Origin: a virus
Direction: 5' to 3' (one strand)
DNA length: 42,322 bases
Virus genome (UHGV): UHGV-0136707
The position numbers and the translations under genes are program-made. Positions within the stretch are counted from its first letter, which is position 1. The number at the start of each line of letters is the position of its first letter. Below the pieces are notes generated by a model that had not been told where the DNA came from, made no database searches, and saw only the letters and a program-made list of their open reading frames with translations. Positions 1 to 17,909 of the stretch are shown one piece after another.

Positions 1-318
1 GATTGCTTTCTGGCGTTCTAGCTCCTTATAAATCTGCATTGCCTCAATTAGTACCGGCCTGCCGTTCATGAAGGGATCGCGCAACCTTACACGCTGGCCA
101 ACTCGACCAGTAATAAAGCTGTTTTCCTCTTCCACCAGCACGATAAAACCCTTTTCCTCTTTTTCTCGCAATTCGCGCAGCAGCTGGAGTTCCATGTCGC
201 GGCGGCGTTCAGGGTAGCTGGTCCGCTCAGCCATTATCAGCTCGTTATTGATCCATGCAGCAGTCATTGACGCCGGTTTGCCGACGCTCATCGAAACAAC
301 GCATATTTTCTTATCCAT
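1..318 (-). CDS. mat: N-terminal part of a Mat-like protein (gene runs off the window edge)
   Basis: Minus-strand reading frame from ATG at 316-318, open to position 1 (about 106 codons, MDKKICVVSMSVGKPASMTAAWINNELIMAERTSYPERRRDMELQLL...). Position beside ref matches the P1 order cre-cra-ref-mat as I recall it. No recognisable domain. Confidence 0.35.
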   Translation of the reverse strand, partial: MDKKICVVSMSVGKPASMTAAWINNELIMAERTSYPERRRDMELQLLRELREKEEKGFIVLVEEENSFITGRVGQRVRLRDPFMNGRPVLIEAMQIYKELERQKAI

Positions 319-507
319 AGCGCCCCCTACAAAAAAGAAAAGCCACCAGCGGCGGCTTAGCAATACAACTGAAGGTAGCGCCCGGTACTCAGACTGTGCC
401 GTCCATGGAATATTTGAAAAGGGATCCATCCGTACCGGGCGTGTGATGATTCTGACTGAAGTCACTTGTCAGTTGTCAATCATTTATCATTAAAAATAAT
501 ATATTTA

Positions 508-1068
508 TTAGTGCATGATGTTTGCCATCTCATAGGCGTCAGCCAGTAACTCCATCTCTGACTTGTTCAGCAGGGTGAATTCTTTCTTGCCTCCAACCAC
601 ACCATCGGCATGAACAGGGACCAGCCAGGGGTATTTTGCTCTTACTTCAGCCGGTGCTGCATGCTGGTGGTGCCATCTACAAAGTGGCAATTGCTTTTTA
701 TGACAACCCGGCGCGGTACGACCGGCGATATGGTGCAGAGACACCTCATTAGATATTACTCCATGCATATAGCAGGCAATGCAGGGGAGAGCGCCAAGAG
801 CATTGGCGATGCGCCGTTCCTCCGCCGTTGGTGTTCTCCCCTTCAAGCCACGAGATTTTATTTTTACCGCGCTTTTCCGCGTTTTGCTGGCTGGTGGGCG
901 TTCTTTCTGTTTAGCGATACGGCGGTCGATAGTATCCCGCATTTTCTGATATTGAGATTCTCGCCAGACCGGATCAGCCAACTTCTCCCGTTGCCGAGCG
1001 ATCGCTCGTTCTCTGGCTGCCTTCTGCCACTTGCGGCACTGTTCAATTTTTTGTTCGATTGTTTTCAT
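508..1068 (-). CDS. ref: Ref, recombination enhancement function (HNH-like nuclease)
   Basis: 186-aa ORF. N-terminus MKTIEQKIEQCRKWQ and the Cys/His-rich core (CIACYMHG...HHIAGR...CHKK...CRWHH) match my memory of P1 Ref. Lies next to cra/cre. Confidence 0.85.
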   Translation of the reverse strand: MKTIEQKIEQCRKWQKAARERAIARQREKLADPVWRESQYQKMRDTIDRRIAKQKERPPASKTRKSAVKIKSRGLKGRTPTAEERRIANALGALPCIACYMHGVISNEVSLHHIAGRTAPGCHKKQLPLCRWHHQHAAPAEVRAKYPWLVPVHADGVVGGKKEFTLLNKSEMELLADAYEMANIMH

Positions 1069-1074
1069 ATGGTC

Positions 1075-1100
1075 AAAAAAAAGGCGGCCTAATGGCCGCC
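1075..1100 (-). terminator. hairpin plus U8 tract in the ref leader
   Basis: Minus-strand GGCGGCC-ATTA-GGCCGCC followed by TTTTTTTT, ending 6 nt before the ref ATG. Confidence 0.5.
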
Positions 1101-1167
1101 AATGATGTCAAGGAGTGAAGTAATGGCAACGTCTTCGTAGTTGACAAAAACTGCGGCTCAATTATAG

Positions 1168-1184
1168 CAATCAATTAGAGCAAT
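1168..1184 (-). promoter_or_regulatory. C1-operator-like site upstream of ref
   Basis: 14/17 match to the operator consensus ATTGCTCTAATAAATTT (recalled from literature), in reverse orientation. Overlaps a plus-strand TTGACA-N16-TATAGC promoter-like element at 1141-1168. Confidence 0.4.
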
Positions 1185-1291
1185 GGTAGATATTTTGTTT
1201 ATCGCGAATCACATTTTTTCACTTCAGTACCTGTGTGCTATACTCCTTCTTGATTGATTGGATGCGGAATACAAACCCGCTCTTTTGTGCA

Positions 1292-1318
1292 GCCTGGCTC
1301 CTTGCCAGGCTTTTTTTT
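1292..1318 (+). terminator. intrinsic terminator, plus orientation
   Basis: GCCTGGC-TCCTT-GCCAGGC followed by T8. The T-run is only on the plus side. Confidence 0.6.
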
Positions 1319-1628
1319 ATTTCATCATGGAAGCTGTTAATGCTTTGGACCTTGCTGAACTGATTGAGAGGGCTTTGTCAACGTGCCCCAAAAATTCGCC
1401 AAACTCAGACATCACTCTGGCAAAACCGCGCCGTGCTTCTTCCTCGGTGGCATTCATCACGAAATGTTCAGCACTACGCATACTTTTGACAGGGAACGCA
1501 ACGGATATTGAGTCAATATCAGGCATTCTATCGCTCAGCTTTACAGTGACAATGACGGCTGGCGACTGAATATTAGTGCTTACAGACAGCACTACATATT
1601 TTCCGTCGATGTTGAAATCCTTTCTCAT
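1317..1628 (-). CDS. cra: small protein between ref and cre (cra-like)
   Basis: 103-aa ORF in the position of P1 cra. No recognisable domain. An operator-like 17-mer sits just upstream at 1645-1661. Confidence 0.45.
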   Translation of the reverse strand: MRKDFNIDGKYVVLSVSTNIQSPAVIVTVKLSDRMPDIDSISVAFPVKSMRSAEHFVMNATEEEARRGFARVMSEFGEFLGHVDKALSISSARSKALTASMMK

Positions 1629-1644
1629 ATGCCACCATAAATAT

Positions 1645-1661
1645 CAAATAATTAGAGCAAT
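1645..1661 (-). promoter_or_regulatory. C1-operator-like site between cre and cra
   Basis: 14/17 match, reverse orientation. Confidence 0.4.
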
Positions 1662-1678
1662 TTATTGTACATTGACGG

Positions 1679-2710
1679 CTAATCACCATCTTCCAGCAGG
1701 CGCACCATTGCCCCCGTTTCACTATCCAGATTACGGATATAGTTCATGACAATATTTACGTTGGTCCAGCCACCAGCTTGCATGATCTCCGGTATTGAAA
1801 CTCCGGCGCGGGCCATATCTCGCGCGGCTCCGACACGGGCACTGTGTCCAGACCAGGCCAGGTACCTCTGACCAGAGTCATCCTTAGCCCCGTAAATCAA
1901 TCGGTGAGTTGCTTCAAAAATCCCTTCCAGGGCGCGAGTTGATAGCTGGCTGGTGGATGATGGCGAGGCAACACCATTTTTTCTGACCCGGCAAAACAAG
2001 TAGTTATTCGGATCATCAGCCACACCAGAGACAGAAATCCATCGCTCGACCAGTTTAGTTACCCCCAGGCTAAGTGCCTTCTCTACACCTGCGGTGCTAA
2101 CCAGCGTTTTCGTTCTGCCAATATGGATTAACATTCTCCCACCGTCAGTACGTGAGATATCTTTAACCCTGATCCTGGCAATTTCGGCTATACGTAACAG
2201 GGTGTTATAAGCAATCCCCAGAAATGCCAGATTACGTATATCCTGGCAGCGATCGCTATTTTCCATGAGTGAACGAACCTGGTCGAAATCAGTGCGTTCG
2301 AACGCTAGTGCCTGTTTTGCACGTTCACCGGCATCAACGTTTTCTTTTCGGATCCTCCGCATGACCAGTGAAACAGCATTGCTGTCACTTGGTCGTGGCA
2401 GCCCGGACCGACGATGAAGCATGTTTAGCTGGCCCAAATGTTGCTGGATAGTTTTTACTGCCAGACCGCGCGCCTGAAGATATAGAAGATAATCGCGGAC
2501 ATCTTCAGGTTCTGCGGGAAACCATTTCCGGTTATTCAACTTGCACCATGCCGCCCATGACCGACAAACGGACAGAAGCATTTTCCAGGTATGCTCAGAA
2601 AACGCCTGGCGATCCCTGAACATATCCATCAGGTTCTTGCGAACCTCATCACTCGTTGCATCGACCGGCAATGCAGGCAAATTTTGGTGTACGGTCAGTA
2701 AATTGGACAT
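1679..2710 (-). CDS. cre: Cre tyrosine site-specific recombinase
   Basis: 343-aa ORF whose sequence I recognise as Cre (MSNLLTVHQNLPALPVDATSDEVRKNLMDMFRDRQAFSEHTWKMLLSVCRSWAAWCKLNNRKWFPAEPEDVRDYLLYLQARGLAVKTIQQH... and C-terminal catalytic region GHSARVGAARDMARAGVSIPEIMQAGGWTNVNIVMNYIRNLDSE). Canonical loxP lies 419 bp upstream. Confidence 0.98.
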   Translation of the reverse strand: MSNLLTVHQNLPALPVDATSDEVRKNLMDMFRDRQAFSEHTWKMLLSVCRSWAAWCKLNNRKWFPAEPEDVRDYLLYLQARGLAVKTIQQHLGQLNMLHRRSGLPRPSDSNAVSLVMRRIRKENVDAGERAKQALAFERTDFDQVRSLMENSDRCQDIRNLAFLGIAYNTLLRIAEIARIRVKDISRTDGGRMLIHIGRTKTLVSTAGVEKALSLGVTKLVERWISVSGVADDPNNYLFCRVRKNGVASPSSTSQLSTRALEGIFEATHRLIYGAKDDSGQRYLAWSGHSARVGAARDMARAGVSIPEIMQAGGWTNVNIVMNYIRNLDSETGAMVRLLEDGD

Positions 2711-2717
2711 TTAACAC

Positions 2718-2939
2718 TCAGATAATGGTTTTAAGTAAAGTGTACAGGATCGGCTCTGCCTTTACCTGTTTATGGTTCTCGTCATAGAAACGCCAGCGAC
2801 CGCGCGTGCGTTCTATCTTTTCTTCACCGCGCGATAATGACAGTTGGCAACTATCACGGTCAAACCCTTTTGCCCGCCAGTAACCACGATTTTTCTCAAG
2901 CTCAAGATGAGTGGACACTTTAGCAGCTGAATATCCCAT
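2718..2939 (-). CDS. hypothetical small protein in the cre leader
   Basis: 73-aa ORF with a GAGGTG Shine-Dalgarno 4 nt before its ATG (2937-2939). Its stop is 8 nt from the cre start. I do not recall a P1 gene here, so it may be spurious. Confidence 0.3.
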   Translation of the reverse strand: MGYSAAKVSTHLELEKNRGYWRAKGFDRDSCQLSLSRGEEKIERTRGRWRFYDENHKQVKAEPILYTLLKTII

Positions 2940-3036
2940 TTTTCACCTCTGATTGATTGGTGGTGCTAAGTGCGCTACGCGAAATCTGGAGCACTAACAC
3001 TGCCAACATTTCGCAGATTTTACGTAGCGCAACCTT

Positions 3037-3056
3037 GATCAAATGATCAAGTGATC
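3037..3056. promoter_or_regulatory. cluster of three GATC (Dam) sites in the cre upstream region
   Basis: GATCAAATGATCAAGTGATC: three GATC at 8-bp spacing, ~330 bp upstream of cre. Consistent with Dam-sensitive cre promoters described for P1. Confidence 0.4.
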
Positions 3057-3128
3057 ACTATTTGACCTGATAAGGTATTGAACTGTATGGATTTACAGGT
3101 AAATTGATCATGTTCAATAACCCTTAAG

Positions 3129-3162
3129 ATAACTTCGTATAATGTATGCTATACGAAGTTAT
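3129..3162 (+). other. loxP: loxP recombination site
   Basis: Exact ATAACTTCGTATA-ATGTATGC-TATACGAAGTTAT: 13-bp inverted repeats around the 8-bp asymmetric spacer. Confidence 0.98.
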
Positions 3163-3205
3163 TAGGTCCGAAGAGGAGTTTACGTCCAGCTGCGCATAAA
3201 AATCA

Positions 3206-3222
3206 AGAATTATTAGAGCAAT
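3206..3222 (-). promoter_or_regulatory. C1-operator-like site (immC region)
   Basis: 15/17 match, reverse orientation, 44 bp right of loxP. Confidence 0.55.
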
Positions 3223-3282
3223 AAATTTTGAGAGAAAAATCCCACTCCACCAGCCAAAAACTGGATTGTTTTTCATAGTTGT

Positions 3283-3309
3283 TTGACAATTGCTCTAATA
3301 AATTATAGT
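3283..3309 (+). promoter_or_regulatory. promoter overlapped by a C1 operator (immC, drives coi/c1 direction)
   Basis: -35 TTGACA (3283-3288), operator ATTGCTCTAATAAATTA (3289-3305, 16/17), -10 TATAGT (3304-3309). Confidence 0.65.
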
Positions 3310-3543
3310 TTTGCCGCCGTTTCGTAATACGACTTTGGATTCACTATTTAATGTGTCTTCAGCGTTGTAGAGCGGCTCAGAAGGAAATGAGCAAACAGGG
3401 AAACCTTATACAACGGCATTACAGCTATGCATTGCTCATCTTACACACAGCGCAATGTTGTTAGATTACCCCAGCATGGATCATGGGTGAAACAGTAGGT
3501 CAGAGCTTCAGGCTCTGTGTTGTCAATACAGTGAGGCATAATT

Positions 3544-3753
3544 ATGGCTTTCATTCCACCAACCATCGACGACGTTAGACATTGCTCTAACGCTTTATCT
3601 GTAGACCCCGCCGAAACCGACGCTGCCCGCGCCATTGCTGAACACTACTCAAAGATATCCAATCAGGAGTACCGCATCACCCAAGACGACCTGGATGATC
3701 TCACTGACACAATCGAATATCTCATGGCCACTAACCAGCCAGACTCACAATAA
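3544..3753 (+). CDS. coi: Coi, C1-inactivator protein
   Basis: 69-aa ORF immediately upstream of c1 on the same strand. Size and position match P1 coi. Operator-like sites flank it. Confidence 0.75.
   Translation: MAFIPPTIDDVRHCSNALSVDPAETDAARAIAEHYSKISNQEYRITQDDLDDLTDTIEYLMATNQPDSQ
3581..3597 (+). promoter_or_regulatory. weak C1-operator-like site inside coi
   Basis: 13/17 match (ATTGCTCTAACGCTTTA). Confidence 0.3.
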
Positions 3754-3769
3754 ATGCACTAATAAATCT
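3753..3769 (+). promoter_or_regulatory. C1-operator-like site between coi and c1
   Basis: 14/17 match (AATGCACTAATAAATCT), starting at the coi stop. Confidence 0.4.
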
Positions 3770-3863
3770 ATTATTTTCGTTGGATCCTTCTATAATGGTG
3801 GCCAACAACTCCCAGTGTAATCCGCTGTGAGTTGTTGGCCATGTCAATTCTGGAGGAGGATCA

Positions 3864-4715
3864 ATGATAAATTATGTCTACGGCGAACAACTGTACCAGG
3901 AGTTCGTCAGCTTCAGGGATCTCTTTCTAAAAAAAGCTGTTGCACGCGCCCAACACGTTGATGCCGCCAGCGACGGTCGTCCTGTACGCCCGGTTGTCGT
4001 TCTGCCGTTCAAAGAAACGGACAGCATTCAGGCTGAAATTGATAAATGGACTTTAATGGCGCGGGAACTGGAACAGTACCCAGACCTCAATATCCCAAAG
4101 ACTATTTTATATCCAGTGCCTAACATCCTTCGCGGTGTGCGTAAGGTTACAACTTATCAGACAGAAGCTGTGAACAGCGTCAACATGACCGCTGGCCGCA
4201 TTATTCATCTGATTGATAAGGACATTCGCATCCAGAAAAGCGCGGGGATCAATGAGCACAGTGCGAAATACATAGAGAACCTGGAAGCAACAAAAGAGCT
4301 AATGAAGCAGTACCCGGAGGATGAAAAATTCCGTATGCGTGTACACGGCTTTAGCGAAACAATGCTGCGCGTCCATTACATTTCCAGTAGCCCTAACTAC
4401 AATGATGGTAAATCAGTTAGTTACCATGTGCCGCTGTGTGGTGTGTTTATCTGCGATGAAACTCTCCGTGATGGAATCATCATCAACGGTGAATTCGAGA
4501 AAGCAAAATTTAGCCTTTATGACTCTATAGAACCGATCATCTGCGACCGCTGGCCGCAGGCAAAAATATATCGCCTGGCAGATATTGAAAATGTAAAAAA
4601 ACAAATTGCCATCACTCGCGAAGAGAAAAAGGTCAAATCAGCCGCATCAGTTACGCGCAGCCGTAAAACTAAGAAGGGGCAGCCAGTAAACGACAACCCC
4701 GAAAGCGCGCAATAG
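3864..4715 (+). CDS. c1: C1 repressor of lysogeny
   Basis: 283-aa ORF (MINYVYGEQLYQEFVSFRDLFLKKAV...). Length and N-terminus match my memory of P1 C1. Several ATTGCTCTAATAAATTT-like operators lie upstream. Confidence 0.93.
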   Translation: MINYVYGEQLYQEFVSFRDLFLKKAVARAQHVDAASDGRPVRPVVVLPFKETDSIQAEIDKWTLMARELEQYPDLNIPKTILYPVPNILRGVRKVTTYQTEAVNSVNMTAGRIIHLIDKDIRIQKSAGINEHSAKYIENLEATKELMKQYPEDEKFRMRVHGFSETMLRVHYISSSPNYNDGKSVSYHVPLCGVFICDETLRDGIIINGEFEKAKFSLYDSIEPIICDRWPQAKIYRLADIENVKKQIAITREEKKVKSAASVTRSRKTKKGQPVNDNPESAQ

Positions 4716-17763: not shown

Positions 17764-17850
17764 TTACCCATGTGCGACGATGCCGCCAAAAGTGATAGAG
17801 AACAGCCAGAAATAGATCGCGGCCATAATGATTTTGAATGCCGTGTTCAT
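17764..17850 (-). CDS. 28-aa hydrophobic peptide (possible leader peptide)
   Basis: Hand-found ORF, MNTAFKIIMAAIYFWLFSITFGGIVAHG, with a CAGGAG Shine-Dalgarno. Its stop lies inside the Shine-Dalgarno of the ASCH gene. Confidence 0.3.
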   Translation of the reverse strand: MNTAFKIIMAAIYFWLFSITFGGIVAHG

Positions 17851-17879
17851 ATTTTCAGCTCCTGTGATTGATTGGATAC

Positions 17880-17909
17880 ATGCCGCGCCTTGCGGCATGT
17901 TTTTATTTT
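17880..17909 (+). terminator. intrinsic terminator-like hairpin, plus orientation
   Basis: ATGCCGC-loop-GCGGCAT followed by TTTTTATTTT, 5 bp after a GATTGATTGG motif copy. Confidence 0.5.

Follow-up and report, generated by a model that had tools for sequence, protein, structure and literature searches.

Bacteriophage P1 is a heavily used and annotated phage, known for Cre-lox, for transduction and for the classic work on C1/c4 immunity. The c4 antisense RNA of the immI region of P1 and P7, reportedly described by Citron and Schuster in 1990, is processed from the transcript that it regulates and has two sites in a single operon (icd-ant). Satellite phage P4 also has a processed immunity RNA, the CI RNA, which causes premature transcription termination. 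Here we report on virus genome UHGV-0136707 (42,322 nucleotides (nt); the whole stretch is called the window), which was identified as a P1/P7-like phage-plasmid with its left end being the cre end in reverse orientation. Between the genes ref and c8, the plus strand of this element very probably encodes a conserved, unannotated small RNA.

By analogy, the c4 immunity RNA would be the nearest functional relative of this RNA within P1. Both are small RNAs of the same phage family with short complementarity to ribosome-binding regions of phage messenger RNAs (mRNAs), and the new RNA could likewise add an RNA layer to C1 repression. It differs from c4 in that it appears to have its own promoter and terminator, carries its pairing sequence (the seed) at the 5′ end and has predicted sites at distances of up to 18 kb, in three operons or more. 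With the CI RNA of P4 it shares a short sequence complementary to repeated target sites in phage transcripts; its predicted sites, however, lie at start codons, which would indicate translational control.

In layout the candidate resembles base-pairing, Hfq-dependent small RNAs (sRNAs) of enterobacteria, those of the RybB, OmrA/OmrB and MicC type, with an own promoter, a single-stranded 5′ seed, an internal hairpin, a U-rich stretch, a terminator with a long U tail, and several complementary sites of 10–14 bp at ribosome-binding regions. In contrast to these, a phage-plasmid encodes it, and the targets recognised for it are genes of the phage itself; it may depend on Hfq. Trans-encoded type I antitoxins such as IstR-1 (of tisB) and OhsC (of shoB) come to mind because at least two of the predicted targets are very small hydrophobic open reading frames (ORFs) with a structured 5′ leader, namely the leader ORF of the pmgT operon (28–46 amino acids (aa)) and, in distant lineages, orf50. 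Assignment to a type I toxin-antitoxin system was rejected: such pairs are adjacent or overlapping, whereas the RNA gene lies 16.6 kb from the small ORF (1252 versus 17850), and the ordinary genes cra and pmgS are predicted targets, too.

A candidate small RNA gene between ref and c8

A sequence-only reading of the window had proposed for this interval a C1-repressed RNA of about 140 nt that would start near 1175, behind TTGACA-N16-TATAGC, and stop at an intrinsic terminator. The plus-oriented terminator (1291-1318) was confirmed by terminator scans, which found a hairpin at 1291-1311 with 8 pairs, 6 of them G-C (stem AGCCUGGC/GCCAGGCU, loop UCCUU), followed by T8 at 1311-1318 (U8 in the RNA). 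It adjoins the stop codon of c8 (1317-1319, minus strand); after the hairpin the minus strand reads GCACAAAAG, without a T-run.

What had been overlooked is a better plus-strand promoter at 1216-1244, found by a promoter scan as TTTTCA-17-TGcTATACT. Its extended −10 element (1236-1244), which is also marked by conservation, consists of TG (1236-1237), c and TATACT (1239-1244), and the −35-like TTTTCA (1216-1221) is weak. We propose that this sigma-70 promoter, which no C1 operator overlaps, drives the small RNA gene. The discriminator that follows (1245-1251, plus strand) has a fixed length of 7 nt and a variable sequence (ccttctt, cctttct, cattcgc, cgttcgc or catccgc), and from the spacing we infer that the RNA starts at G1252. 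It would run from there to the hairpin at 1291-1311 and the U8, giving about 67 nt.

The predicted RNA is laid out as follows. The 5′-terminal seed GAUUGAUUGG (1252-1261, plus strand) stands out by its invariance and is predicted by RNAfold to be single-stranded at nt 1–7 or 1–9, nt 1–7 being unpaired in 8 of 11 predicted folds. It includes most of the TGATTGATTGG copy at 1251-1261 that the sequence-only reading had pointed out. Hairpin 1 (GCGG-aatacaaac-CCGC, 1264-1280, plus strand, folded in 11 variants) is followed by the U-rich linker UCUUUUGUGC (1281-1290, plus strand), whose GUGC is invariant in the alignment of all lineages and which may be a module for Hfq binding, and then by the terminator hairpin and the U tail. 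The 70-nt stretch 1251-1320 folds more stably than shuffled sequences (z = −3.2). As had been stated, there is no plausible plus-strand ORF in the interval, and a peptide encoded by the small RNA was rejected because neither its AUG positions nor its reading frames are conserved across the lineages. A small plus-strand non-coding RNA with its end very probably at this terminator is what remains of the earlier proposal, with the start moved to about 1252 and the length to about 67 nt. That a functional RNA of this kind is encoded here we consider highly likely.

The promoter and operator of the earlier proposal are present as sequences: TTGACA at 1141-1146, a 16-nt spacer, TATAGC at 1163-1168, and the 17-mer CAATCAATTAGAGCAAT at 1168-1184. 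Read on the minus strand, the 17-mer is ATTGCTCTAATTGATTG and matches the C1 operator consensus with 3 mismatches; in the window an operator consensus scan found 12 such sites where 0.2 were expected. It is the monovalent C1 operator Oref (formerly Op2a, minus strand), annotated in P1 and P7 (AF234172, AF503408), which controls ref and overlaps the ref promoter P2ref (1161-1189, minus strand). The sequence TGcTATAAT of P2ref, the reverse complement of 1161-1169, is a perfect extended −10, with the −35 near 1184-1189. The sequence-only reading had itself offered, as its alternative, that the operator belongs to the minus-strand ref promoter, and this alternative is correct; it does not dispose of the small RNA.

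TATAGC was rejected as a plus-strand −10 element, since it ends in C and is the reverse complement of the extended −10 of P2ref. TTGACA-N16-TATAGC is absent from the output of the promoter scan because TATAGC lacks the near-invariant T at the last −10 position. Among homologues the sole frequently variable base of the hexamer is G1167, which is the free n in the TGnTATAAT of P2ref; the element under selection is therefore the minus-strand promoter. Control of the plus-strand RNA by the operator did not hold up either. Oref lies about 70–85 bp upstream of the likely RNA start, and distant lineages keep the RNA gene without the operator and without ref (see below). For these reasons the small RNA is probably not C1-controlled, and the operator-free promoter predicts its presence in lysogens and lytic growth alike.

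The site is free of annotation in the P1 record (535 features), and the RefSeq E. coli records listed have no non-coding RNA feature under the match. Within the library searched, no paper describing this RNA was retrieved; an older mention is possible. With Rfam, no family reached its gathering score in positions 1-4000 at E ≤ 10, the best being SorX with 22.6 bits versus 46.6 required; over the whole window only three tRNAs passed the gathering threshold; C4 was matched in neither range; the distant loci gave no match.

Nucleotides 2–10 of the RNA (AUUGAUUGG, window 1253-1261) are identical to nt 10–18 of OmrA (L494 510-518), and only these 9 seed nt are shared. The OmrA-B family (RF00079) has no match in 1-4000 even at E ≤ 10, while the true OmrA locus reaches 96.6 bits. 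In principle, the phage sites might also be bound by the OmrA of the host, and some OmrA targets by the phage RNA. A link to the regulation of ppc by OmrA was dismissed: OmrA pairs with ppc via nt 1–6 and 43–52, not via the shared 9-mer.

Conservation in P1-type and distant lineages

For the P1 type, 80 IMG/VR loci were collected through C8, which yielded 51 unique sequences. The conservation and covariation analysis, a check already named in the sequence-only reading, pointed to a conserved short gene. Nucleotide diversity (pi) among the unique homologues is 0.0085 in the extended −10 (1236-1244, 1 of 9 columns variable), 0.008 in the seed (1252-1261) and 0.0085 in the RNA body (1262-1310), as compared to 0.074 in 1141-1235, which comprises P2ref/Oref and the spacer, 0.072 in the c8 coding sequence and 0.135 in c8 third-codon positions. 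With a pi of 0.008–0.016, positions 1236-1311 are the most conserved part of the locus, and the conserved block therefore starts at the extended −10 and not at the promoter proposed earlier. The seed is unchanged in 76 of the 80 loci.

Two homologues (L072 and L039) carry independent ends of Tn3-family transposons at about 1228 and about 1232, just upstream of the extended −10. These insertions part it from ref and Oref but leave the RNA gene essentially intact, with 100% and 98% identity.

More distant relatives were found with C8 by tblastn of plasmids, and in IMG/VR. The Salmonella arizonae plasmid CP053320 (L085) encodes a C8 46% identical to that of the window, and two further lineages from IMG/VR, L209 and L208, have C8 proteins 58–76% identical to that of CP053320. 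Together with the P1 type this makes four lineages. On the same strand and in the same order, the distant ones have TGTGaTATACT, N7, GATTGATTGG, a hairpin, GUGC, a terminator hairpin and a T-run, so that promoter and terminator accompany each other on one strand in all four lineages, as in an independent transcription unit encoding a base-pairing sRNA. TGTGnTATACT stands at a fixed 7 nt from the seed and the seed GAUUGAUUGG is invariant in all four, while the flanks have diverged and the −35 region, the discriminator and the hairpin 1 sequences differ. Hairpin 1 is formed in the distant lineages by the unrelated sequences UGCAUGG/CCUUGCA, GUAG/CUAC and UGCAGG/CCUUGCA instead of the GCGG/CCGC of the window, and their terminator is AGCCCGG-cgaaag-CUGGGCU. 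In 11 variants, 100% of the cells of the terminator helix are paired; there is one compensatory pair (U-A to C-G) and one change from G-C to G-U. The gene downstream is not ref, and TTGACA/TATAGC and the operator are missing. What is conserved while the flanks and ref are lost is therefore a strand-specific transcription unit whose first ten bases do not change.

These comparisons bear directly on the 140-nt transcript, which would share the terminator with the RNA proposed by us. In favour of its promoter, the −35 hexamer is perfect and the spacer has 16 nt, P1-type homologues retain TTGACA or TTGACT, the transcript would hold CUCCUUCU (an anti-Shine-Dalgarno sequence) directly 5′ of the seed, and the 146-nt fold is modestly better than shuffled (z = −2.1). 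Yet 1141-1235 evolves about 5–9 times faster than 1236-1311, the Tn3-family insertions remove the promoter and leave the short gene intact, the distant lineages have the RNA gene and nothing of that promoter, and TATAGC only mirrors P2ref. We therefore regard the C1-repressed 140-nt RNA as very unlikely.

A second alternative is that hairpin and T8 are a terminator only, which would block stray antisense transcription into c8/cre or insulate c8 from ref, and that the conservation of 1236-1290 reflects upstream control DNA of the ref promoters. In favour of this, the hairpin adjoins the c8 stop codon and H-NS binds ref's 5′ regulatory region in lysogens (PMC4713147). Against it, the block survives in lineages and in transposon-insertion variants without an adjacent ref, and an invariant 10-mer recurring at start codons in other parts of the genome is not something that AT-rich H-NS sites require. 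We regard it as very unlikely that the terminator is the whole story.

Further lineages were not found in a viral scan (GATTGATTGG-N12-40-GTGCAGCC) or in a metagenome scan (22-base pattern), in which 47 of 47 matches were of P1-type length; the family thus is confined to P1-like elements. A genome-collection scan with TATACT-N7-GATTGATTGG was unspecific (about 120 matches) and detected the element only in two Escherichia contigs (L143, L163), the other matches examined being without hairpin and T-run.

Two observations were made beside the RNA gene of the distant lineages. An inverted repeat brackets the −10 of the RNA in CP053320 (L085 3040-3065, minus strand of the locus) and at the same place in L208 and L209; its arms covary (GCGAATG/CATTCGC, GCGAAC/GTTCGC and CGGATG/CATCCG), and the P1 type is without the repeat. 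It could be either a hairpin in the 5′ untranslated region (UTR) of the downstream gene on the opposite strand or an operator on the RNA promoter. In addition, a membrane ORF of 53 aa (MRRIAVALVGLVIGWHIWKVF...; L085 about 2815-2975, plus strand) lies in the distant lineages between c8 and the RNA terminator, with its stop codon within an A-run complementary to the U tail of the RNA.

Predicted targets of the seed

If the RNA acts by base pairing, complements of its seed should be found in phage mRNAs. Exact copies of CCAATCAATC were counted on both strands and compared with dinucleotide shuffles: 5 were observed in the window (0.17 expected), 5 in P1 (0.39 expected) and 4 in CP053320 (0.26 expected). 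Among the 10-mers of the RNA, only the 5′ one has a complement that recurs in both P1-type and distant genomes. A conserved, accessible seed thus goes together with complementary sites that are conserved and in excess, which is what is looked for in a base-pairing sRNA. Extra copies of GCTCTTTTGT are same-strand, T-rich matches and were taken as chance.

The first predicted target is cra, with CCAAUCAAUC at 2951-2960 (minus strand) directly 5′ of the Shine-Dalgarno sequence GAGGUG and of the ATG at 2939. The predicted duplex has an energy of −15 to −18 kcal/mol, and wherever the start region of cra was located, in 68 of the 80 P1-type loci, the site is kept.

The second predicted target is an unannotated hydrophobic ORF of 28 aa (MNTAFKIIMAAIYFWLFSITFGGIVAHG, 17764-17850, minus strand) with a good Shine-Dalgarno sequence, situated downstream of Op88/PpmgT in the leader of the C1-controlled pmgT operon. 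Here CCAAUCAAUC (17866-17875, minus strand) lies 2 nt 5′ of GGAG, before the ATG at 17850; the predicted duplex has 14 bp and −22.4 kcal/mol, the site is exact in 70 of the 80 P1-type loci, and it is kept in all four lineages. A homologue of 46 aa is present in CP053320, where the 9-mer UCAAUCAAUC precedes it. In SJ46 a 'membrane protein' is annotated under the 301-bp match.

Beside this site, a 10-bp hairpin with a T-run behind it (17878-17900, plus strand) comes straight after the seed motif's plus-strand copy; read on the minus strand, it puts a stem-loop at the 5′ end of the mRNA of the pmgT operon. A 'sibling' RNA from 17866 (plus strand), composed of seed and hairpin with T-run, was considered and given up: no promoter was found, and in CP053320 the T-run is missing.

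The third predicted target is pmgS (ATG 19791), with CCAAUCAAUC in codons 7–10 (19762-19771, minus strand), exact in 76 of the 80 P1-type loci. Its 10-mer is invariant in the four lineages including synonymous positions, whereas adjacent N-terminal codons differ. The distant pmgS loci had to be found with a single distant protein, the PmgS alignment query having given only relatives of 99–100% identity.

CP053320 has three exact sites besides that in the gene itself. They are found on the coding strand, at start codons or close to them, ahead of pmgS, of orf50 (a hydrophobic ORF of 50 aa) and of the gene that opens the cra-cre operon. L297 and L298 (contigs of L209 and L208, respectively) again contain the sites of pmgS and of the leader ORF. 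Over the targets the predicted duplex energies range from −15 to −22 kcal/mol.

Next to the invariant ten bases, nt 11 of the RNA varies: the P1 type has A, the CP053320 and L209 types have U and the L208 type has C. The base opposite to it in the leader ORF is U in P1, A in CP053320, A in L209 and G in L208, all of which pair. In pmgS it is A in P1 (no pair), A in CP053320, A in L209 and G in L208. In orf50, absent from the P1 type, it is A in CP053320 and G in L208, both pairing; and in the first gene of the cra-cre operon it is A in P1 (at cra, no pair) and A in CP053320. In the available DNA, orf50 was not seen in L209, nor was that first gene in L209 or L208. Across the lineages nt 11 thus pairs at 10 of 12 sites by three different pair types, and in the L208 lineage G stands opposite C11 in 3 of 3 targets. 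This is hard to explain other than by RNA-mRNA pairing in cells.

The covariation is, at the level of sequence comparison, the strongest argument against a third alternative, namely that there is no plus-strand RNA and that CCAAUCAAUC is a mere mRNA motif recognised by a protein or by ribosomes, for instance a translational operator or an enhancer near the Shine-Dalgarno sequence. The copy at 1252-1261 would then be one more site in a c8-ref read-through mRNA (to which the proposed RNA would be fully complementary), and the hairpins would be 3′-UTR or insulator structures. Several facts fit this: all copies of the motif have the same orientation relative to the coding strand, the P1-type copy is followed by the Shine-Dalgarno-like AGAAGGAG as at true start regions, hairpins in the mRNA precede several sites, and the covarying inverted repeat around the −10 of the distant lineages would fold in the minus-strand mRNA. 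This alternative leaves unexplained why TGnTATACT is conserved at a constant distance of 7 nt from the motif, why in every lineage a T-run comes after the hairpin on the plus strand only, and why the target-adjacent base tracks, as a Watson-Crick complement, the base adjacent to the 1252 copy; moreover, AGAAGGAG is not conserved in distant lineages. We consider this alternative unlikely.

In the model preferred by us, the seed of the RNA would pair with the CCAAUCAAUC motifs in the mRNAs of cra, the pmgT-leader ORF and pmgS. Pairing would most likely block binding of the 30S subunit and promote decay of the mRNA, amounting to a post-transcriptional damping. Repression is the likeliest outcome because the sites adjoin Shine-Dalgarno sequences. 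In lysogens the RNA could keep leaky transcripts from C1-controlled operons silent and fine-tune the cre operon. In a Δhfq host infected with P1vir, pmgS and pap were over-induced and the upstream pmgQ and pmgR were reduced (preprint 10.64898/2025.12.28.696737), and the switch therefore falls at the pmgS site; we regard this pattern as circumstantial support for the small RNA.

Several points weigh against this model. The whole case for the small RNA rests on sequence, and the synthesis of the RNA, its need for Hfq and the repression of its targets are inferred from it. The comparison comprises only four lineages, all P1-like, and three of them share the terminator sequence, which leaves few independent evolutionary contrasts. 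The −35 element of the promoter is poor. In the P1 type nt 11 is unpaired with cra and pmgS, and the pmgS site, at +21 to +30, is past the usual window for direct occlusion of the ribosome. In the Δhfq data cra and pmgT decrease (10.64898/2025.12.28.696737).

Three IMG/VR variants (L028, L034, L038) carry both TG to TA (1237) and G10 to A in the seed (1261), with the cra target site unchanged; their copy of the RNA gene may be decaying, and hence the gene can decay. An exact CCAATCAATC at 28715-28724 (plus strand) is not near a start codon. This site lies about 176 nt downstream of gene 5, runs antisense to dbn and is absent from CP053320; it is probably due to chance. Finally, the minus strand at the P1-type RNA gene, CCAATCAATC-AGAAGGAG, resembles a start region without an ORF, which the RNA model leaves unexplained. 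The AGAAGGAG at 1243-1250 (minus strand) looks like a strong Shine-Dalgarno sequence, has no start codon after it and is relic-like.

With all this considered, we hold the full model, in which the seed also pairs with these targets at their ribosome-binding regions, to be likely.

Neighbouring genes and meaning for P1-like elements

The genes in the left part of the window, all on the minus strand, are mat (its end only), ref (508-1068), c8 (1317-1628), cre (1679-2710) and, upstream of cre, cra (2718-2939). Positions 1060-1700 have 97% identity to P7 and 96% to P1. The right-hand neighbour of the RNA gene is thus c8 and not cra, as had been assumed in the sequence-only reading.

Between the cre stop and the c8 start there is a C1-operator-like 17-mer, ATTGCTCTAATTATTTG (1645-1661, minus strand). 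In its place P1 has ATTGCTATAATTATTTG, and the P1 record is without an operator annotation there. Because of this 17-mer, C1 may control c8 in this P7-like element. A strong hairpin, GGCGGCC/GGCCGCC followed by T8 (1083-1100, minus strand), separates the promoters of ref from its ATG (1068). It looks like a leader attenuator, which agrees with the title of a 1988 paper by Windle et al.

Of 5,426 complete E. coli genomes 615 contain the element, as do 697 plasmids in PLSDB. We are mildly inclined to see in it a second, unrecognised constitutive regulatory RNA of the P1-family phage-plasmids (present in about 11% of complete E. coli genomes) that would control a small regulon of phage ribosome-binding sites, comprising the cre operon leader, pmgS and small hydrophobic leader peptides. 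The RNA could also act on incoming relatives, because seed and sites are identical across heteroimmune lineages. The genetically defined 'c8' function in the establishment of lysogeny, which we take to have been assigned only tentatively to the adjacent ORF, might map to the RNA.

If this is true, the lysis-lysogeny and plasmid-maintenance circuitry of P1 would have a post-transcriptional layer, acting via the cre operon leader and the C1-controlled lytic operons, and there would be a concrete candidate for the effects of Hfq on P1 development. The RNA would then be present in hundreds of P1-like plasmids of clinical and veterinary E. coli, Salmonella and Klebsiella, many of them with resistance genes.

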